Origin: a virus
Taxonomy: Duplodnaviria > Caudoviricetes
Strand: one strand, 5' to 3'
Virus record (IMG/VR): IMGVR_UViG_3300037247_001786
Span: 352,001-416,000 of that record
Length of the DNA stretch: 64,000 nt
Shown in pieces: positions 9,437-34,977 of this stretch. A program made the position numbers and the translations under genes. Position 1 is the first letter of the stretch, and each line of letters begins with the position of its first letter. The notes beneath the pieces were generated by a model. The model was not told the DNA's origin and did no database searches. It saw only the letters and a list, made by a program, of their open reading frames with translations.

Positions 9437-12414
9437 AAACAAGAATCATTGAAAGAACTGGTCCAAGCGGTAGAGTATCATATGTTATACAACAACCTCA
9501 TTTTCTATTTAGATGGTGGTGGGTAGATGCTTGGATCAACAGTATGTGCGGAGCAAACTGCCAAGATTCGTTTGACACAATGGAAGAAGCAAAAGCTAAT
9601 CTATGCTACTTCGATGGGACTCCGACAGTAGAAGTTATTGTAACTGCATAAGAGAAAATAATTATGATATTAACGTATATAACATTGGTATTGTGTCTGA
9701 TATGGATAGCTATCATTCTTATAGGACATGATGGGTACTCTATCAAAGGACCTCTTAAATGGTGGTCGTGCGGAATAGGGATAAGCATCTTCGGATTGCA
9801 AGCCTCTAGTGCTCAAATATGCTTTGGTTTCCCAGAGATATTTACTATCATACTCTTTATCGTGATGACGATTATGCTTGTTACTGTTGCAATTAAAACT
9901 CCTAAAAAGCCTTTACATGAGAGATTGGGCGAATGATAAACCACCATATACCAGAACGATGTAAAACATGTTCGTATCATAGAACATGGTACTGGCCTTC
10001 AAAGCTAGAACATAGGCATTGCTACCATCAGGATAGTTATAGATGTATAGAAAGACCAGGGAACAGTACGTCAATAAAAGACCACTATAGTCCTCGATGG
10101 CGTTGGTTGCTTTGGTGGGGATTAACATTTCAATGGAACAAGTTAGATAAAAAGGAAATAATATGAACAGTATTATAGAAGAAAATAAAGATGTACTAAA
10201 AATACGGTTTAATACATATTATAGGGATGAAGGACAAGATGTAGGAACCGTTAAATTAAAATCATGTGATGAAAATGGGAAATTATTTGAAACACTGTTC
10301 GCCTGCTCAACAATAACAAAAAATTATGTACAGCGAAAAATATATAATTTGATGTTAAAAGAAAGTTGCGAAGTGGAATTAACTATCTCGATAGAACCGA
10401 TTGATCATACATTCATAGCACGATTAATTAATAATGGATTTCGATTAGAAGATGATAATGGAAAAGAGATATGGGGGCAGTACCATGGAGGAATTATTAA
10501 TTGGATGAAAAAATATGAATATCAAGGAAAAGAAGCGTACTTCTTTTTCGAAGTGTTATAAGGAAATATAAAATAGTAGATTCAAAAGGATAATGATATG
10601 GTAACAATACCACAAATAATAAATCAAACTAACCAGATAGCTGATGGGATAATGGCTAATAAAGAAATGAGAGGTTTCTCTGTCGCACAAGAACTAGAGC
10701 TTCAGATAGCTTCCATAGAAGCTGCATCTAAAATTATGCAAGCTATACTTATAGGTAAAGAGATAGATAATATGAGAAGATTTTAAAAGGAACGCTGTGA
10801 CACCTGAACAAGCAATACAATTAAATAAAGAAAGAATATCACTCAAAATTAAAATGGTAGCAGAGCTACTCATATCATTCATGGACGATGTGCTTATCGA
10901 GGAGATAAAGTCTCTGGAAAAAGGAACACCTCAGAAATTTTGTATGAGATATTTCGCAACTACCCACCTTACGAATAAGGATAAAAATCTATTTGTTGAG
11001 CATAAATTTGCAATAGCAAAAAATATAGTGAATCATTATAATGAACACAGATGGGAAGCATATATAATAGAAAATAGTAATCTTGTTATATCCATAGAAA
11101 TACCAGGAGAATAAAATATGATCATAATAATAGTAGCAGCGTACATCTTACTGACAGCCATATGCCTACCTTTTATGATAAACAGCGGAAACTTTGATTT
11201 TAAGTATGATTCTAAATGGACAACTACAAAACAAATAGCAGGACTGTTTCTTGCAGGATGGTTGTTGACAGTGATGGGCATTATATTCGTTATACTCGCT
11301 GCAATGTTCTGGATAGTTATGACTATCTTTGAAATAGAAGGTTAAACTTCGAGTGAAAAGAATATGAATAAAAAAATATGGATAACAAGAAGTCGCAGCC
11401 ATCGATCAGATGGACCAAAATATGTTGTCTCAATATGGTGGATACAAAAACCATTTTGGCACAGTGATGAGAATAATAAATTTTGGTGGTCAACCTGTCT
11501 AGGAGAAAGTGAACTTATATCAACAAAATTAAGTAAACAGTTATTTGGATTAGCACCAAAAGAACATGAAATATATACAGCCGAAGAAACAGATGATGGA
11601 TATAAAATAACACAAAGACAAACAGCAAGAGATTGCTATCGTACTGATGTAGATAGAAAATTAGGTTTGGAATGGTAAAATTTAATACTTGAAAGTGTTT
11701 CCTAAATAAGATATAGTAGTGACATGAACATATGTGAAATAATTGGAATTGGATGTTTACTAGCAGTTGGAGCAGGAATATTAGCTGGTTTTATAATAAT
11801 GATGGCAGGAATAATGGAAGAAAATAAAAGAGACTGGAATGAATAGACGCAACGAAATAATAATTGGAGCATCTATAATAACTCTTATTGCGATAATCCT
11901 TATGCTGTTAATAAGTTCTGTAAGATCAATGACCCCAAGGTGCCTCGAATGTAAAACTGTATCATATAGTACTGAATACTGCGGTAGTTGCGGAGAGTGG
12001 ATGAACCCTCCATATTGTAAAAAATGCGACAGAAGATATTTTAGCGGTTGTAAAAAAGATAAATACTGTGAGGACTGCGGAGAAGAACTTGTAACCTTGA
12101 CAGAGAAAGAATAAAATAATATGAACATATATAAACAAAGATGGAACAAGGCTAAACAACTAGCTAACGAGATAAATGATAGGTACGAAAAAGCCATTAA
12201 AGAATATGGCAATAAATGTATCCTCATGTATAGAGAAATACTCGAAGATGCGAATATCGTTATATATGATGATCAAATTATATTACATGTACCTGGAGCT
12301 AATTTTATATTGTTCATAGATGATCCAGAACAAGATATGGGGTCACTCTCAACGATAAAAGAAATAGAAGAACTATTCGATGAAATTAATATACTCGTAC
12401 CATATAAGGGATAG
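9433..12414 (+). other. Run of small hypothetical CDSs, several predicted membrane proteins
   Basis: Abutting + strand ORFs of 60-130 aa; hydrophobic segments in 9664-9936, 11118-11345 and 11839-12114 (the last with CxxC pairs). Confidence 0.65.
11689..11717 (+). promoter_or_regulatory. sigma70-type promoter
   Basis: TTGAAA-17-TATAGT. Confidence 0.6.
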
Positions 12415-12417
12415 AAG

Positions 12418-12867
12418 ATGTGCATAGAATATAAATTAACAACAGATAAAAAAAAGAAAATACTTGATAAGATAGGCAGAGAAGGAATAAAAGTCTATAA
12501 GATAGTAAGACATGGAGATTGGGGACACTATCCTATATATCGAAATAAACAAACTCCATATGAAGAAGGAGTAAATACCGCCCAAAGAATACAAATAGTA
12601 TCGTGGGACGCAGTATCGTATATGTCAGGCTTCCATTTCTATATGAACAAATATGCCGCGAAAATGACACTAAAGTATGAATGGGAAGATATGGATGATG
12701 GTTATCAATATAAAATTATAGAGTGTATTGTCAAAAAATCATGGGTGACAACGATAGGAGAAGAATACATTTTTAACGACGATGGAAGATATCAAGATCT
12801 CACCCAAGTTATTATCACTAAAAAAGCTATCTTCCCTGTTTTCGCGGAGAATAAAACATGTGTATAA
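12418..12867 (+). CDS. Hypothetical protein, four-copy family
   Basis: GIKVYKIV...SGFHFYMN...IIECIVKKSWVTTIG. Confidence 0.8.
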   Translation: MCIEYKLTTDKKKKILDKIGREGIKVYKIVRHGDWGHYPIYRNKQTPYEEGVNTAQRIQIVSWDAVSYMSGFHFYMNKYAAKMTLKYEWEDMDDGYQYKIIECIVKKSWVTTIGEEYIFNDDGRYQDLTQVIITKKAIFPVFAENKTCV

Positions 12868-13271
12868 ATAGAATAGCAAATAAAGAAAAATGGCTGAAAG
12901 ATAAACCAAAAGTCATAACAGCATATAAAGTAGCAATAGCATGTTATAGTAAAGAACTAGACGTAAGACTATATCCAGTCTTTAATAACGATAAATACTT
13001 TAAAAGAAATAACCTACTCAGAAAAGTTAAATCTGAAAGAAGTGAAAAATACCAACATGTCGATGGATCGAAAAACTCGACATATATAGCATATTACCAC
13101 CTGTTCGCAAAGAGAAAAGACGCAGAGAGACACAGAAACTGGATGGGAGGATCTGTTATAGAATGCACAGTACCAAAAAAATACATAACAGAGATAGGAT
13201 ACCAATACGGACATACAGTAATCGTAACAAGAAAATTCTCCATAGTAGGAGAAGATGAATTCCTAGACTAA
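12858..13271 (+). CDS. Hypothetical protein, four-copy family
   Basis: AYKVA...AYYHLF...VIECTVPKKYITEIG. Confidence 0.75.
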   Translation: MCINRIANKEKWLKDKPKVITAYKVAIACYSKELDVRLYPVFNNDKYFKRNNLLRKVKSERSEKYQHVDGSKNSTYIAYYHLFAKRKDAERHRNWMGGSVIECTVPKKYITEIGYQYGHTVIVTRKFSIVGEDEFLD

Positions 13272-13695
13272 TTACAGAGAAAGAATACATATAAGGAGAA
13301 TTATAATGATATATATTAAAGAAAAAACAGAAGAATTACTGACAATGACACCAGAACAAGCCAGAGAACTTGCAAAAGAACTTAACTATATGGCTGACGA
13401 AACAGAAGATCATGAATACTCATTTTCAACAGAATTATGGATGGAAGGAAGTTTAACGACGGTTAAACCAATGAAGATTATTATAAAAAATATAGATAAA
13501 AATCCAGAAACACTCTTTCCAAGATAAATAGAAAATATGAAACCTATAAAAATAACAAACCCCAAATATAAAGAAATAATAAGAGAACAAACAAAAGAAC
13601 CACTAATACAAAATATAGCAATAGGGTTCGCAGAAGCTCTAAAAGAACTCGGACACAATAACTTCGAAATTATTATAAAAGAATAAGGAAACAGT

Positions 13696-14145
13696 ATGTG
13701 CCTAGAACATAGATTGCCAAAAAATAAAGCAAATAAAATCATAGATAAGATACCACCAGAAGGAATCAAAGTTTATAAAATAGTAAAATGCGGAAGCGTA
13801 CATTACCACCCAATACATAGATATGAATTCGGACCATATAATGAAGGAGTAAATAAAGCACAAACAAAACAAATATCGGCATGGGAAGGGGAAAAATATA
13901 TGGCAGGCTTCCATTTCTATATGAACGAAAAAAACGCTAAATATATACTCAATAAGGAATGGGGAGATTCAGTATATACCTTCAAACTTATAGAGTGCAT
14001 AGTTAAAAAATCGTGGATAACAGCAATAGGACATGAAGTCGTATTTAAAACCGTTCATGGAGATTTCGACGATGTGTATCTTACAACAACAGTCATCGTA
14101 GCAAAAAAAGCCATATTCCCTAAATTTTGCGGAGAAAATAAATAA
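13696..14145 (+). CDS. Hypothetical protein, four-copy family
   Basis: GIKVYKIV...AGFHFYMN...LIECIVKKSWITAIG, close paralogue of 12418. Confidence 0.8.
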   Translation: MCLEHRLPKNKANKIIDKIPPEGIKVYKIVKCGSVHYHPIHRYEFGPYNEGVNKAQTKQISAWEGEKYMAGFHFYMNEKNAKYILNKEWGDSVYTFKLIECIVKKSWITAIGHEVVFKTVHGDFDDVYLTTTVIVAKKAIFPKFCGENK

Positions 14146-14493
14146 TGCTATTTAAAGTATGTATGAGTATAGCCACTATACTATTCTTAATAGTTATAGT
14201 AGTTAATATAGTCTCGTCAATCAAAGAAAAAAAGAAATATGAATATCTCAATGAGAGAGATGATGGATTCACAGGAACAGCGAAAAGATATAGAAAAAAA
14301 CACCCTATTAAAAAATAAGGATAAATATGATAGAAGTAATTAATGAACCAGATGATTGCCCATTCCAGAGAACAGATTATGACGGATTCCCAGATGGATG
14401 TAAGTATGATGAAACTAAATGCTATAATCATAACGAATTCCCAGAGGATTGCCCACTGAATGATGGCGATATTACAGTTACAAAAGGATAAAT

Positions 14494-14613
14494 ATGAAAT
14501 GTAAAAAACATCCAAGATATAAAGGGAAAAATAAAGAACAAGCAAAAAATTGCCCAGCCTGTATCTGTATATATATGAATAGACTATTTAAAGAAAAAAG
14601 GGAAAGACAATGA
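14494..14613 (+). CDS. 39-aa Cys/His microprotein (not in ORF track)
   Basis: Manual translation MKCKKHPRYKGKNKEQAKNCPACICIYMNRLFKEKRERQ; tandem paralogue follows with ATGA overlap. Confidence 0.65.
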   Translation: MKCKKHPRYKGKNKEQAKNCPACICIYMNRLFKEKRERQ

Positions 14614-14726
14614 AATGCAAAAAACACCCAAACTATAAAGGAAATGGAAAACCAAGAAATTGTGCAACCTGTCTATGCATACACCTGGAAAAACAACTTA
14701 AAAAAAGTAGAGAAAATAGAGAATAG
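14610..14726 (+). CDS. 38-aa Cys/His microprotein (not in ORF track)
   Basis: Manual translation MKCKKHPNYKGNGKPRNCATCLCIHLEKQLKKSRENRE. Confidence 0.65.
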   Translation: MKCKKHPNYKGNGKPRNCATCLCIHLEKQLKKSRENRE

Positions 14727-14769
14727 CTCTTTTTCCCGCGAAAAATAATAAATATAAGGATCAATACAA

Positions 14770-14934
14770 ATGACAATAAACAATATAAACAGAGAAACAG
14801 AAATGGTATATGATAACCTAAAAAGAATAACCAGCAATATACCATCAAAAGATACACTAATAGAAGCAACTGCTAAAATAATGCAAGCTAAAATTATAGC
14901 TGAAGCAATAAGTAACATAAGGAACATAACATGA
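14770..14934 (+). CDS. 54-aa protein, paralogue of 10598-10786 (not in ORF track)
   Basis: IEATAKIMQAKIIA versus IEAASKIMQAILIG. Confidence 0.55.
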   Translation: MTINNINRETEMVYDNLKRITSNIPSKDTLIEATAKIMQAKIIAEAISNIRNIT

Positions 14935-15627
14935 GGAAAACAAAAGTTATTAAAGCCTCTCCAGCAGCACTCGAACAAAGGATAGATACTTGGATAAAAT
15001 GTAACCCAAGAGCAGAAATAATTAGAACAAGTGCTGCAGCCATAAATGAATACAATGTTCTATATGTGATAATATATGAAGAAAAACCAATATAACACCG
15101 ATACCTCAAATAATTTGCCAGAGTGGTAAAAAATGGAATTTATAAGAATATGAAATATAATACTTGTCAAAATCATAAAACTCCTGACCAAATAGAAAAA
15201 GAAGATCATCGCTCTATATATCAAAAAAGATGCCTACTGTCTATAGGAGATAAAATAAAGGCTACTACCGAATTTAGAAAAGTAATGATTGGCTCATATA
15301 GACCAAAAGAACCTGTATTCGAGGGTGGCAAAATCATAGAGTTTAAAGATCCATACGACTCAGATGGAAAAACAGCACACTCATTGGCAAATGTAGAAAT
15401 GCCTTGCGGTTGTACACATCGTATCAATACAGCTTGGCTTGTCAAAATCTAACCCTTTTTCGCGAGAAATAAAAATCCCCATTAATAACCCAAAAATCCA
15501 TATAAACTACAATATACACAAGATTAATATATAATGACTACAATACTTAATATAATAGCAACTATAATATATGGACTAATCATATTTAGCGAACACATAT
15601 ATATAAAGATAACACAAAGATAACAAT

Positions 15628-15858
15628 ATGAAGAATAAATTCACATGAGGACACGCTAACGACGAATCCAACATAAGACTAAATGGAGAACACTATCTCG
15701 AAATATCTAACTATGGACATACAAAAGAAGTAATAGATAGAGTAGAACATATCACCGAACTACTAAACCAAACAACAACTGCTGATGTAATACCAGAGCC
15801 TCCACAACCTCCACCAAAGAGAGTAATCATAGAGGGAGTAAAGATAATACAAGAATAA
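15628..15858 (+). pseudogene. ORF interrupted by in-frame TGA at codon 7
   Basis: ATG AAG AAT AAA TTC ACA TGA GGA CAC..., then the frame stays open 69 more codons to TAA. Confidence 0.4.
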
Positions 15859-16242
15859 CAAACAAAGCACAGATCAAACCACAGGGCTTATACCCCCTTA
15901 TCAGAATACCAGTTAATAGCTCAAAAATCAACTATGGCAATCAATAGGGAAAATAATGGAACTAAGTGGTACAGAGTGGTGTAAAAGGGTGAAAAACCCC
16001 ATTATTACCCAAAAACCCAATTAGAGGTCAAAAACCCAATAAATATTGCTCACAAACCTATAACCCAAATATAATAAGAAAAATGCTTATTATTGATACA
16101 CAAGCACCAAATAGGAATATCTTTAAATAATTCTCATCGACCGATCTCGATAAACCGACTCTATTTACCCTTAATATAATAATAAGAATTATTTTTATTC
16201 CTTATATAAAAGTAATGATACACCTTATATCAAGTACTATGG

Positions 16243-16470
16243 CACTCTTTGTCATATTTGCCAGAGTGACAAAAAAACTGTTGTCTGGTATAAGTTGTTT
16301 TCAGTTGCACCAAGTTATTACCACTCTGGCAGTTATTTGATACAATTATTTGCCAGAGTGTGAAAAAACACTTCTTATATATGTAGCAGTCATATATTTT
16401 GTTAAAAACTGTCACTCTGGCACTGTATGGGTCATATTTATTTGCCAGAGTGGTAAAAAGTGCTTTTTAT
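16243..16470. repeat. Three units of inverted box pairs with 92-bp period; candidate replication origin
   Basis: Forward boxes at 16258/16350/16442, reverse CACTCTGGCA at 16322/16413, partial reverse CACTCT at 16243; coincides with compositional skew flip. Confidence 0.7.
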
Positions 16471-16482
16471 AAGAAATAATAC

Positions 16483-16511
16483 TTGAAAGTGATTTATCAT
16501 TATGATATAAT
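16483..16511 (+). promoter_or_regulatory. sigma70-type promoter
   Basis: TTGAAA-17-TATAAT with TG upstream of the -10. Confidence 0.8.
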
Positions 16512-16551
16512 CACGTTCTGTATTTGAGTTTATTTTTTGGAGAGAAAAGTT

Positions 16552-17232
16552 ATGAGTGACGTAGTAAGAGATTATTCAGATGTCAAGGACACAGTAGAGT
16601 TATCTATTGGTGATCGCACCAAGATAACTAATCGCAGAGGAAACGTTATCACTCCTCGCAAATACCATATGGCAGATGATCAGATAGAGGAAGCACGTAA
16701 TCGCTGGAGAGAGTTGATAAAAGATGTTCCTGCTTCTATTCGCCATAAGGCCAGGCGATCGTTCTTTAATCCATTTAGGGTTAATGGTTCTTATTTTGGT
16801 CAAGTTCAAGCACTGTATCTACTTGGTGCTAATGAGTGGCATACTTACTCATCTGTTCGTGGTAAGATGCAGGAGGACATGAGTACCCGTAAGAGTCCTC
16901 TCAACACTTTGAATAGTTGGGAGAAATTTGCTACTAGGAGTGCTCGTGAGGGAGCTACTTCTACTAAAGATTTAATGGGTAGAATAGTTAGTAACTTCCG
17001 TACTCTTCAGCGTTTAGGTGGCACTAACCCTTATGGTTATAAGCTTAAGCAGTTGTTATCGAGTGTTGATGCTCGTCGTAGAGTGGATAGTATTTGGGAG
17101 TTTAGGTTAGATACTACTTGGACTGATATGGACTTGGTTAAGCCTTTTTATGATATATCTGCTTATGTTGTTCCTAAAGGTAAGAAGGTTGATACTGTAG
17201 TAGTTTCTACAGATGTTCCAGTTGTTGACTGA
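16552..17232 (+). CDS. Hypothetical protein, possible winged-helix DNA-binding protein
   Basis: GGAG RBS favours ATG 16552; Arg/Lys-rich, helical core followed by a beta-hairpin-like SVDARRRVDSIWEFRL; fold call is inference. Confidence 0.6.
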   Translation: MSDVVRDYSDVKDTVELSIGDRTKITNRRGNVITPRKYHMADDQIEEARNRWRELIKDVPASIRHKARRSFFNPFRVNGSYFGQVQALYLLGANEWHTYSSVRGKMQEDMSTRKSPLNTLNSWEKFATRSAREGATSTKDLMGRIVSNFRTLQRLGGTNPYGYKLKQLLSSVDARRRVDSIWEFRLDTTWTDMDLVKPFYDISAYVVPKGKKVDTVVVSTDVPVVD

Positions 17233-17306
17233 TTGGGAGAGTATGCACTGAATTGGGTATACCCTTTTTCTTTTCCGCGAAAAAATGGGTTTTAAGGGTA
17301 AAAACA

Positions 17307-18513
17307 ATGATTAAGTACTATTTAAAAAGATATGGTTATGCGGCATGGTTAGGTCTTGCACTGGGTATGTTCGCCAATATAGGTATATTTGATATTGATT
17401 TCTGGCTTATTCTTGTGCCTTTTTACTTCTTACTAGGTTGGAGAGATCAATGATTGAAGCACTGATTAAGATATTATGTATATGGTGTATCCTTGGTTTT
17501 ATAGCCCCTATGCTCACTCCTGACCCTGAAACAAAGAAGGGGGCTATTATCCAGTTAATAACTTTTGGTCCCATTATGTGGGCTTGTGTAGGCGTAAGTA
17601 CGTTAATTGATATTTTTTCGCGGATAAAAAAATGGCTAAATGGTTAAAAATTCCCAAGACATATGGTGGACTTCAGGATAATATTGCCTATGAGAAGGCA
17701 TTATCTACTCCCACTAAAGAAGAGAAGATGATAAGTCTATTTAATTTTAGCACCAAAATCTTTAAGTTCTTATCTTGCCTATGGTTAGCACTGATTATCT
17801 TAGGTTTTAGTTTAATGTCTCTTGCACCGAAAGTAGCTGGAGTTATAGGAGCTACAGGTAGTTTCCTCTTTGTAGTTAATTTTATTAGTTATATTTGTTT
17901 AATAATGATGATATTGTATATGAAAGGTCTAAGTAATGAGTAACATAATTGAATGGATTAAAGACAAAGATAATGAGTTAGTGGCTACTATTGTCCTCTT
18001 TGTAGTTGGGATATTAATAGTACTGTTTGGAGTTATATCTATTGCACTGACAAGTTCAGGGATATTTATTGTCTTTGGATCCTTGTTAATGCTAATGGGT
18101 GTTATAATTGTAATATTCGGGTTCGTTACTCTGATGGAGTTCCTAGGCGGTCTATAGCACTGAATAGGAAACCACTATATGTAGCGGTGCAGACTACCCC
18201 CAATACCCACTACATATAGTACATACAACATATGGTGGGTATGCAATGGGTAATACCCACTACATATAGTATATTGAAAGGTAAAAAGATGCAAAAAATT
18301 GCAAAATGGTTAAGAGATGAAGTTATCTATAAGTTAGTAGCTAGTGTTTTCATGTTTTTGGGTGGAATTTCTACTCTATTTATAGCTATTCACTTTTGTA
18401 ATAATTCTAAAATTGGTATGGGAGTAGTTCTCCTTATATTAGGTTTAGTTTTTAGTGTTCTTGGGATTATTCCTTTGATATCTAAGTGGTGTAATTGGCA
18501 GGATATAGAATAA
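17307..18513 (+). other. Cluster of five small predicted membrane proteins
   Basis: ORFs ending 17453, 17647, 17943, 18157 and 18513 each have about two long hydrophobic segments. Confidence 0.65.
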
Positions 18514-32056: not shown

Positions 32057-32638
32057 ATGGACCTATTTATACAAAATATGGATAAGATAGAAAAGATAGC
32101 TGAAAAGATGGTAAATTATTGGCATGGGAAATTTGAAGTCGAAGAATTGATAGATACTGCTTATATTAAGTATCGTACAGCTATCGAGAATAATCCCTCA
32201 TTAGTGGATAGTGTTTTTTCTAATCTAACAACTTTTTTATGGCGTGTAAAAAATGATATGAAGGATTATATAAAAAAACAAACTGGGATAAGAACAAAAG
32301 AAAAGAAAAAAATGCTTGCTAACACTATTACTCATTCTTTTCAACGTCCAGATGACGATAACGGCAATCACGGTTGCATATCTTTCTTTGAACCTCAAAG
32401 TATTGACAAAGGTCAGGAAAGTGTGGACAATTGTGAACTTCTTAATGAAATTTTTAAAAAAGTAGAATTAACTGATAGAGAGTGGAAAGTTATACAGGGC
32501 TATTTTTGGGAAGGAAAAACAACTAAAGAAGTGGGTATAGAACTTGGGTCTGCCGATAAAAATGCTTCTGGAACAACTTGTAATATAAAAAATAAGATAG
32601 TAAAAAAACTTCAAAAACAAGCGTTATTATTGGTGTAA
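32057..32638 (+). CDS. sigma70-family sigma factor-like protein 1
   Basis: Region-2-like IEKIAEKM...EELIDTAY...FLWRVKNDMKDYIKK; region-4-like LTDREWKVIQGYFWEGKTTKEVGIELG. Confidence 0.75.
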   Translation: MDLFIQNMDKIEKIAEKMVNYWHGKFEVEELIDTAYIKYRTAIENNPSLVDSVFSNLTTFLWRVKNDMKDYIKKQTGIRTKEKKKMLANTITHSFQRPDDDNGNHGCISFFEPQSIDKGQESVDNCELLNEIFKKVELTDREWKVIQGYFWEGKTTKEVGIELGSADKNASGTTCNIKNKIVKKLQKQALLLV

Positions 32639-32640
32639 AT

Positions 32641-33204
32641 ATGGATTTCTTTTTTGAACATTTAAAAGGCATACAACAGATGGCTCGTAAGATTTGCAGG
32701 TCTTATCATGGCAAGTACGAGGTAGATGAATTGATAAATGTAGCCTGGATGGATTATCAAGTAATGATAGAAAAGTATCCTTTTTGGACAAGGAGTTACC
32801 GTTATCCCGAATTAATTCTTTATAAAAGAGTCAGATATGATATGTTAAATTATATCAGATATGATCTAAAATTAAAGAAAAAAAAGATATTAGAGAAAAA
32901 TGGTTCTCACGTTCCACTGTTTATTAGTTATAATGCAGAGGATAAAGATGGGGAAAAGTTATCTTCTTTCACAGGTTCGTATTCTGATAAAGGTTTTGAC
33001 AAAGTCGATAATCTTGAGTTATTAGAATATCTTAGAACTCGCATGGGATTAACTGATAGAGAGTGGAAGATACTTAAATATTATTTTTATAATGGGTACA
33101 CAGACAGATTAATTGCCGAAAAAATAAATATATCAAAATCAAGGGTATCGCAGTTAAGAAATCAAGCTCTCAAAAAATGTAAGGAACACTTAATAGGAGT
33201 ATAA
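32641..33204 (+). CDS. sigma70-family sigma factor-like protein 2
   Basis: DELINVAW...YKRVRYDMLNYIR; LTDREWKILKYYFYNGYTDRLIAEKINISKSRVSQLRNQALKK region 4 HTH. Confidence 0.85.
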   Translation: MDFFFEHLKGIQQMARKICRSYHGKYEVDELINVAWMDYQVMIEKYPFWTRSYRYPELILYKRVRYDMLNYIRYDLKLKKKKILEKNGSHVPLFISYNAEDKDGEKLSSFTGSYSDKGFDKVDNLELLEYLRTRMGLTDREWKILKYYFYNGYTDRLIAEKINISKSRVSQLRNQALKKCKEHLIGV

Positions 33205-33871: not shown

Positions 33872-33903
33872 AAAGAGAGAGGCACTATGTCTCTCTTTTT
33901 TTT
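33872..33903 (+). terminator. Terminator closing the tRNA cluster
   Basis: AAAGAGAGAGGCA-CTATG-TCTCTCTTTT followed by T run. Confidence 0.75.
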
Positions 33904-34977
33904 CGCGAAAAATAATTGCCAGAGTGTGAAAAAATAGGATTTATGATATTATGAAAAAGATATTAAGTAAAGTAGAATTGAAATTTGGTAGCGACTCTAT
34001 CATAGATGGGAACCATCTATCTATAGATATCAACTTATTCGAAATTACATTAACTGACGATTCTATAGTATATAACGTTGGAATAAATTTTCTTAGTAGT
34101 CAAACTATTAAGAGTTTGTTAAAATTAGAAGATTATAGTTGTACAGATATGAAAGAAGCATTTAAGAGATTCCGACAACTACATACTTCTTTAAAAGTAC
34201 TATTCGAAAATATGGAGATAGAAAGGTAGAATAATGTATTTATGTAAAATATCAAAAAGAGAAGTATGTAGGAATGGTAATTGCAAGGACACGGTAGTAC
34301 ATGAGCTTGTGTCTTGTAGTAGCTCTCTTCTTCCAGGAAATGCAAAAAAGTGGGTTAAGAAACATTTCTCATCAGCATATAAGAACCATGTAATGAGTAC
34401 TTTCCATGCGGTTCCTGGATTTAAAGCATTGAATATATCTAACGATGATGGTAGTCCTCATAATACATATAATGGGAGAGCTACTATGTTTGATGAGTAT
34501 GGTCGTCCAGTATATATAATTGCTATTGATGTATATGCAGTTGAAGTAGTCAATTAATTTATAACGGGAAATATTATGAATGAACAAGATGATCTAGTAT
34601 TAGAAGAGATGTTAACATGAAAGTCTTTATTACAAGAGATGAAGATAGCGACGAAATATGGTTGTGGCTTAAGCCCCGCAAGGGTTCATTTAAACCAGTA
34701 ACTCTCGAAGGTTGTGATATGATCAATTTTCAACGAAGAGACAATATGAATGAAATAGATAAGTATTGTGGCTATACTAAATCTGATTTTAAAAAGAAAT
34801 TTGGAGTTCCTCTTATTAATAAGAAAACTTGCAAAAGTATCGACTTGCCAGATGATTTAGTTCTAGACAATAAATTAACATTAAGTCCTCTGATTTTTGA
34901 CTAATTTGCCAGAGTGTGATTTTTTTGATATTATGATATTGTTGAAACGAATATTATTATTATAAAAGGAATTAAGC

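Follow-up and report, generated by a model that had tools for sequence, protein, structure and literature searches.

A phased array of direct and inverted promoter boxes precedes an orphan winged-helix-like gene in an uncultivated 461-kb phage

An array of promoter boxes upstream of an orphan gene

In the virus record IMGVR_UViG_3300037247_001786 (Duplodnaviria; Caudoviricetes), an array of a short box, repeated in both orientations, lies directly upstream of an orphan gene that encodes a protein of 226 amino acids (aa). We analysed it within a stretch of 64,000 nucleotides (nt), here called the window, which extends from base 352,001 to base 416,000 of one virus contig (460,978 bp; G+C content 34%); the sole public run with the full sequence is a marine-sediment metagenome. 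A DNA search against 50,697 phage records returned no match, and neither did a scan of viral contigs with the 226-aa protein. The forward boxes of the array are named F1, F2 and F3 and the reverse boxes R2 and R3, and positions refer to the window unless they are marked as genome positions (Table 1). F3 is followed directly by a host-type promoter and then by the gene for the 226-aa protein, the CAGA core of F3 lying ~70 bp upstream of the inferred start of that promoter.

Table 1 Features of the array region, with coordinates in the window (keto skew is G+T minus A+C; the -10 score is that of the weight matrix described in the text)
Feature	Coordinates	Strand	Remarks
A/C-rich island directly left of the array	12100..16200 (genome 364,100-368,200)	+	Strongest keto-skew flip of the genome at its right edge
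Conserved non-coding region left of the array	15935..16257	.	Aligned across 8 lineages
F1, forward box TTGCCAGAGTG, then A-tract, without -10 half; predicted box-only site	16258..16268	+	-10 score -4.1; kept as lone forward box in the near clade
R2, reverse box without -10 half	16322..16331	-	-10 score -14.6; follows the lineage-specific box in relatives
F2, predicted complete box promoter: box, A-tract, TTATAT at 16375-16380	16350..16380	+	-10 score +7.7
R3, reverse box without -10 half	16413..16422	-	-10 score -23.7
F3, box and weak -10 (TTATAA at 16467-16472)	16442..16472	+	-10 score +2.4
Host-type promoter TTGAAA-17-TATAAT with TG extension (11/12)	16483..16511	+	8/8 aligned relatives keep TTGaAAGTG ... 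TGcTATAATCAC
Gene of the orphan 226-aa protein, candidate box-binding factor	16552..17232	+	pLDDT 91; residues ~75-190 winged-helix-like; no Pfam/PHROG family

The box TGCCAGAGTG occurs in forward orientation at 16259, 16351 and 16443, with a period of exactly 92 bp (92 and 92), and its longer form TTGCCAGAGTG begins at 16258, 16350 and 16442. Both reverse copies (16322-16331 and 16413-16422) precede a forward copy, at distances of 19 and 20 nt, and the exact matches on which the preliminary description had built were thereby found again. Allowing at most one mismatch, the window holds 56 matches to the box, compared with 1.4 expected by chance, and the only two in reverse orientation are those of the array, as had been noticed before. 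Over the whole genome we counted 80 forward matches, all but two of them at 367-440 kb, and 5 reverse matches. The three reverse matches outside the array (genome 42796, 191498 and 441178, the second with one mismatch) do not form part of a back-to-back pair, and no other such pair exists in the 461-kb genome, so that inverted clusters are not a common feature elsewhere. The number of pairs had to be corrected: three had been proposed, the first resting on a partial reverse copy at 16243, which consists of the 6-mer CACTCT only, has no counterpart in any relative and is probably due to chance. The array is made up of two inverted pairs and one lone forward box.

The box as the upstream half of a phage promoter class

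Alignment of all copies yielded the promoter consensus ATTTGCCAGAGTGG-AAAAA-N-CTTATAG-N-TGT, after which come, in most cases, a short leader, GGAG and ATG. The box occupies positions -38 to -28 of ~80 phage-specific promoters that are confined to one 73-kb block, and its distance to the -10 element (TTATAG) is fixed at 14 nt. A TTGCCA resembling a -35 element lies 19-20 nt from the -10-like TTATAG/TATAGT, which is too long for an ordinary sigma-70 promoter and therefore argues for a phage-specific promoter class. A box in the -30/-35 region, at a fixed distance from a sigma-70-like -10 and in front of many genes of one temporal block, is the arrangement that defines an activator-dependent class, and it is the arrangement found here.

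The -10 halves of the array boxes were scored by a weight matrix derived from 75 box copies outside the array, for which real promoters give 10.4 +/- 5.8 and random sequence gives -14.3 +/- 6.8. By these scores (Table 1), F2 is a predicted promoter and F3 a predicted weak promoter, and F1, R2 and R3 classify as box-only sites. The earlier observation that the box can occur without its promoter half, made for F1 and R2, is confirmed in this way and applies to R3 as well. The predicted transcription start of F2 (~16387, inferred) would read into the 226-aa gene, and the F2 -10 element TTATATATA is kept in relatives. The reverse boxes were also considered as leftward promoters and rejected as such, since they are without a -10 half and the minus strand there has no consensus host-type promoter. 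A scarcity of host-type promoters was not usable as a sign of immediate-early expression, because near-consensus matches are equally frequent in shuffled sequence.

Two further occurrences lie at a distance from the array. At genome 42,796, on the minus strand, a lone complete box promoter (box, then TTATAA 14 nt later) serves the minus-strand gene block, far from the 73-kb block. At genome 441,160-441,200, at the right end of the box-promoter block, a hairpin AACACTCTG-N-CAGAGTGTT, whose arms resemble the box, is followed by TTTTT and looks like an intrinsic terminator.

Conservation of the array across lineages

For comparison, the neighbourhoods of the 226-aa gene were taken from long contigs and 80 metagenome loci. 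The layout of the array is conserved in 19 related metagenomic lineages, always upstream of a gene of the same 226-aa type, and the linkage of gene and array holds across a protein family of >100 members. In a near clade of 10 lineages (55-80% protein identity), the order is F1, R2-F2, R3-F3, host-type promoter and gene, as in the window. In a distant clade (35-45% identity), a host-type promoter of the form TTGACA-17-TAnAAT stands between two reverse-forward pairs, whose sites lie at roughly -80, -51, +10 and +39 relative to it.

The sequence of the box differs among the lineages (TGCCAGAGTG, TTCCAGAGGTG, CACCAGACA, CCAGAGGGTG, CTCAGACGGTG, TTCCAGACA, ATCCAGACA and TCCAGATGA), CAGA alone being invariant, and the reverse copies always agree with the forward box of their own lineage. 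Outside the invariant core the arms covary: 7.44 of 10 positions match within a pair, compared with 4.19 (standard deviation 1.5) between lineages. Furthermore, the own box of each relative recurs on the plus strand at the heads of downstream genes. Symmetric sites at the gene's own promoter that co-evolve with the other sites, as expected of an auto-regulatory operator, were thus present in 19 lineages.

Spacings were measured between the CAGA cores of 25 pairs from these 19 lineages. The distance from a reverse to the forward box is 29-31 bp (~3 helical turns), that from a forward to the next reverse box is 62-63 bp (~6 turns) and the period is 91-94 bp (~9 turns), and therefore all sites would face one side of the helix. 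Such a pattern is expected for drifting sites of a single DNA-binding specificity that are arranged for a cooperative, looped or wrapped complex, and neither chance nor simple tandem duplication nor RNA pairing by itself accounts for it easily. The inverted pairs that, in the distant clade, bracket the host-type promoter, with one site at ~+10, have by analogy the layout of a classic looped auto-repressor. The protein-binding array predicted in the preliminary description is well supported by this layout in 19 lineages, the lineage-specific boxes, the co-varying arms and the fixed, phased spacings.

The 226-aa protein and its neighbourhood

The 226-aa protein belongs to no family in Pfam or PHROGs and has >100 metagenome homologs. 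A structure model built with 64 of these homologs reached a predicted local distance difference test (pLDDT) value of 91 and a predicted template modelling (pTM) score of 0.85; the ESM Atlas provided no usable lead. In an exhaustive structural alignment, residues ~75-190 matched mostly winged-helix DNA-binding domains (Z 5-6), the matches listed comprising Polycomblike, ORC/Cdc6, TubR, Fur, OmpR/PhoB types and histone H1. The modelled core thus resembles a winged helix in the sense of a fold class, not of a family assignment. With regard to initiators of the Rep family, which have two winged-helix domains and fall into Pfam Rep_3 and its relatives, there was no Pfam/PHROG match, and the structural matches listed included no Rep, only generic winged-helix domains.

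Downstream of the 226-aa gene follow genes for small membrane proteins, a RadA/KaiC-like ATPase (weak scores) and then a tRNA cluster; the window holds 33 tRNA genes. Inside the box-promoter block, two open reading frames (ORFs) with sigma-70 region 4 adjoin each other at window 32057-32638 and 32641-33204 and may encode sigma factors for the next temporal class. A third ORF with this region (284 aa; genome 47,889 region, L089) lies beside divergent, near-perfect host-type promoters, located at genome 46,873 (-) and 47,192 (+), where the gene strand switches.

Conserved left flank and strand composition

The non-coding region to the left of the array carries 3-4 phased AGAGTGG-type repeats (~15955-15990) and CCCATTATTACCCAAAAACCC; an inverted partner of the AGAGTGG repeats, TCCACTTTCTC, lies ~270 bp downstream and is clear in relatives and weak in the window. 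The flank also holds a CCCATTTTAACCCAAAAAC block and two AT-rich direct repeats of ~21 bp (16061-16094 and 16166-16199), which flank a conserved ATCGACCGATCTCGATAAACCG block, ATCGACC..TCTCGATAAACCG (ATCGACC..TCTCGAT). All these elements are constant across lineages whose promoter box differs, which argues that a different, conserved factor or function is involved. It is the left flank, more than the box array, in which one would look for an origin, a packaging signal or some other element acting at the DNA level. Rfam gave no match for 14900-17400, and a conserved RNA fold of the flank was rejected, as RNAalifold returned only invariant long-range complementarity and no covariation. The stretch at 16020-16240 had been described as AT-rich. 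Its A+T content of 73.8% does exceed the genome mean of 65.7%, and a 60-bp core (16171-16230; 86.7% A+T) attains the 99.8th percentile, but the stretch as a whole reaches only the 96th percentile of 220-bp windows, and many places in the genome are less stable.

Strand composition changes sharply near the right edge of this flank. At genome 368,200 (window 16,200) lies the strongest keto-skew flip of the 461-kb genome (D = +0.363, 7 standard deviations), the next largest being 0.211. The A/C-rich island to its left has a sharp left edge as well, with a negative flip of ~3 standard deviations at genome 364,100, and third-position keto skew goes down to -0.48 in bona fide plus-strand genes of the island. 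At third codon positions the genes on the left have a keto skew of -0.30 and those on the right one of +0.29, compared with a genome baseline of +0.09, and the non-coding stretch carries the same bias. Protein composition alone was rejected as the source of the flip, which is no weaker when only third codon positions or the non-coding part are considered, and so was the idea that the island genes are really on the minus strand, as homologs in relatives exist only for the plus-strand ORFs. In one paralog family the skew is the stronger, the nearer a member lies to the array. Relatives that possess the array or a long conserved non-coding region show a flip of +0.15 to +0.36, which is absent from those with a short promoter region only, and the cumulative minimum of five near-clade lineages is no more than 70 bp away from F1. 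The flip speaks for a strand-asymmetric DNA process centred on the array; the A/C-rich island itself could be caused by replication, antisense transcription or selection on RNA composition.

The signal is local, comprising the island of ~4 kb on the left and raised skew over ~10-15 kb on the right. Nearly all genes lie on the plus strand, the exception being the minus-strand block at genome ~8-47 kb, and cumulative GC skew keeps climbing across the site; its turning points are confined to the places near 8 and 47 kb where the gene strand changes. In 20-kb bins, third-position keto skew ranges from +0.10 to +0.16 on the left (140-340 kb) and from +0.03 to +0.06 on the right (380-440 kb), the left bins thus lying above the right ones, opposite to the prediction for an origin at 368 kb. 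Cumulative skew, by which the preliminary description had proposed to check its origin, gave a divided answer: there is no replichore-scale switch at the site, but on the local scale the strongest keto-skew flip has its centre at the array and is conserved in relatives.

Interpretation of the array

We favour, with confidence and doubt in about equal measure, the reading that the array consists of phased binding sites of one phage-encoded DNA-binding factor, situated in the control region of the factor's own gene. Host RNA polymerase would first make the 226-aa winged-helix-like protein from the conserved host-type promoter, and the protein would then bind the boxes. At the ~80 promoters it would act as an activator that replaces the -35 contact, like MotA of T4 or like PhoB. 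Copies bound at its own gene on one face of the DNA, at the box-only sites and at F2 and F3, would form a cooperative, looped or wrapped complex that switches expression from the host-type promoter to F2/F3, limits expression, or both; the site at +10 of the host-type promoter in the distant clade argues for auto-repression. Of the earlier suggestion of a single coupling factor, the link of early transcription to this site is supported in outline, the ~80 box promoters and the position of the array before an orphan winged-helix-like gene with a host-type promoter being consistent with it.

Several points weigh against this assignment. A Foldseek search with the model of the 226-aa protein against the PDB, AlphaFold clusters and BFVD found nothing significant, and the structural matches obtained by exhaustive alignment are modest (Z up to 6), under the level that the tool terms 'distinctive'. 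The most conserved segments of the protein barely vary across lineages with differing boxes, and no specificity residues were identifiable among them. The three ORFs with sigma-70 region 4 in the genome could read the box instead of the 226-aa protein. The centres of the half-sites, 29-31 bp apart, are far from each other for a simple dimer. Box binding is a candidate role of the protein, and a phased array acting as a regulatory operator alone leaves the strong flip centred on it unexplained.

The flip supports a serious alternative, in our view less likely than not, in which a replication origin coincides with, or is contained in, the array and its conserved left flank; such an origin would be compatible with the regulatory reading. 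It could take a promoter-coupled form, like T4 oriF/oriG (activator-dependent promoter, unwinding element and R-loop primer) or the T7 primary origin, or an initiator-bound form with the winged-helix protein as initiator. The strongest keto-skew flip of the genome, present also at third codon positions, would then mark the site, and its polarity, A+C-rich on the left and G+T-rich on the right, is that which forks or transcription would be expected to produce if they diverged from the array. The genes of the left flank are truly on the plus strand, with paralogs more skewed nearer the array, the cumulative minimum lies near F1 in the five near-clade lineages, and in relatives the flip tracks the array or the long non-coding region. 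The flank is conserved, with phased short repeats and two AT-rich direct repeats, the winged-helix domains of ORC/Cdc6 are among the structural matches, and the T4 origins oriF and oriG, which combine an activator-dependent (middle-type) promoter with an unwinding element, provide a precedent for such a promoter as an origin (PMC3016281). However, replichore-scale skew is missing and the third-position trend over 20-kb bins is the opposite of that predicted; the flip is an island of ~4 kb on the left and not a step, and divergent or antisense transcription, or selection acting on RNA composition, could have produced it instead. With respect to the rightward promoters, the AT-rich flank, which reaches no more than the 96th percentile, is on the upstream side and not on the downstream side, where T4 has it; the ATPase encoded nearby resembles RadA/KaiC, with weak scores, and the locus encodes no Rep-like protein.

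The iteron-like origin of the preliminary description is not demonstrated. Iterons would consist of at least three direct repeats of 17-22 bp about two turns apart, whereas the boxes here are 92 bp apart, alternate with reverse copies, share a conserved core of ~10 bp and are used in 80 promoters, which is unlike iterons. In addition, genome-scale skew indicates no origin here, the RadA/KaiC-like ATPase is not a clear replicative helicase, and no DnaA boxes were seen by eye.

It is very unlikely that the inverted pairs act not as DNA sites but as RNA hairpins in long leaders from F1 or F2, providing processing, stability or attenuation signals for the 226-aa gene. R3/F3 does lie within the predicted F2 transcript and R2/F2 within any F1 transcript, in distant relatives R2/F2 is in the 5' leader of the host-type promoter, and arm complementarity is kept through sequence change, as an RNA stem would need. 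But the arms are always the promoter box of the respective lineage, which one DNA-binding specificity explains and pairing alone does not; the upstream pair of the distant clade precedes the sole recognisable promoter and is not obviously transcribed, F1 stands without a partner, a stem of 10-12 bp would have to close a loop of 19-21 nt, and the conserved spacings of 62-63 and 91-94 bp would be meaningless for separate hairpins.

The 'direct terminal repeat' of the record (genome 1-110 and 460,869-460,978) amounts to an overlap of 110 bp inside a coding, Ser-rich tandem repeat and was rejected as a real genome end for that reason; the contig is probably a circularly closed assembly, its terminal overlap looking like an assembly artefact of a circular or permuted map. 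This overlap therefore places no true end, and the array region heads the whole early block with a long, conserved non-coding region containing phased repeats and with 3-4 tandem promoters before the first gene that recall T7 A1-A3, yet it is most improbable in our view that a physical genome end or pac site lies here, with a T7-like left end followed closely by tandem early promoters and with the phased repeats as terminase or end-processing signals. The site is crossed without a break by the contigs of the window and by those of several relatives (which a collapsed terminal repeat could also produce), resection, by exposing opposite strands, would be predicted to give the opposite skew polarity, and no terminase gene is nearby.

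Comparison with known systems

The promoter class resembles the middle promoters of T4 (MotA/AsiA), in which a phage-specific box likewise replaces the -35 element, is joined to a host-like -10 and heads many early or middle genes. MotA has 211 aa, and the candidate factor is similarly small with its 226 aa and would be made from a host-type early promoter. T4 promoters of this kind also double as the origins oriF and oriG (PMC3016281). In contrast to these likenesses, the 226-aa protein has no sequence similarity to MotA, and MotA was absent from the structural matches listed for the solved and viral libraries; an AsiA-like partner was not identified here, no search aimed at AsiA having been made. 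We know of no phased array of inverted MotA boxes at motA in T4.

With looped operators (lac O1-O3, gal OE-OI, lambda CI), the array shares symmetric sites in helical phase, ~9 turns apart, that flank or precede the regulator's own promoter, one of them in the distant clade lying at +10; lac O1 and O3 are 92 bp apart. The half-sites here, with their 29-31 bp, are far wider apart, the same site would also be an activator element at ~80 promoters, the protein fold is not that of LacI, GalR or CI, and looping is only a predicted property of the array.

Iteron origins with a winged-helix Rep protein (F RepE, pSC101 RepA, R6K pi; also lambda O) are comparable in that repeated putative sites adjoin the gene of the protein, inverted copies at the gene's promoter would serve auto-repression, the predicted core is of winged-helix type and the flank is richer in A+T. 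Iterons are direct repeats ~22 bp apart, unlike the boxes, which are 92 bp apart, form inverted pairs and are spread over 73 kb as a promoter element; nor did the 226-aa protein match a Rep family by sequence or fold.

The left end of T7 (A1-A3) has tandem promoters ~90-125 bp apart, which likewise head a one-strand early region after a long, repeat-bearing non-coding stretch. The T7 promoters, however, are purely of host type and have no inverted copies, whereas here only one promoter is of host type, the others use the phage box and two boxes are reversed.

Further motifs in the window

A palindromic motif, TTTCGCG(A/G)(A/G)AA, occurs 7 times compared with 0.16 expected, for instance at window 15458-15468, 17272-17282, 14733-14743, 24426-24437 and 33900-33911. 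Its sites directly follow genes and directly precede box promoters, in many cases behind a run of T, and the motif may be a phage-specific terminator or a protein site.

The motif (A/G)CAC(C/T)GAAT was found 9 times compared with 1.3 expected, all on the plus strand (window 17245, 18157, 27476, 36064, 40243, 52273, 59086, 60177 and 61142), and also in L001, L007, L083, L005 and L034. In leaders it runs into the ribosome-binding site (ACACTGAATAGGAG). Relatives have TAGCACCGAATTGG after F1 and F2 in the array and again in the upstream non-coding region, and motifs of this type are kept even where the lineages differ in their promoter box. The motif may serve as a signal for RNA processing or for regulation.

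Conclusions

Almost nothing is known about the timing of expression and the start of replication in uncultivated huge phages (>400 kb). The locus presented here offers a defined promoter class with ~80 copies and a lineage-specific box, a candidate master factor from an unannotated family with >100 members and a confident fold model, and a conserved control region whose geometry of 3, 6 and 9 helical turns allows a specific nucleoprotein complex to be predicted. The lineage-specific pairs of box and protein could serve as orthogonal expression parts. Moreover, the array coincides with the sharpest flip of the genome; for a phage that cannot be cultivated, this is a rare point of access, from sequence alone, to a possible origin or to some strongly asymmetric process on the DNA. 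More speculatively, and in our estimation improbably, a new winged-helix family in huge phages would be both the master activator of the early class and the organiser of the replication start, with a wrapped complex on the phased array, where the early block begins, and diverging synthesis that leaves the flip of ~4-10 kb as its mutational footprint. If true, this dual role would amount to a promoter-coupled origin with an architecture unlike that of T4, T7, lambda or iteron plasmids.
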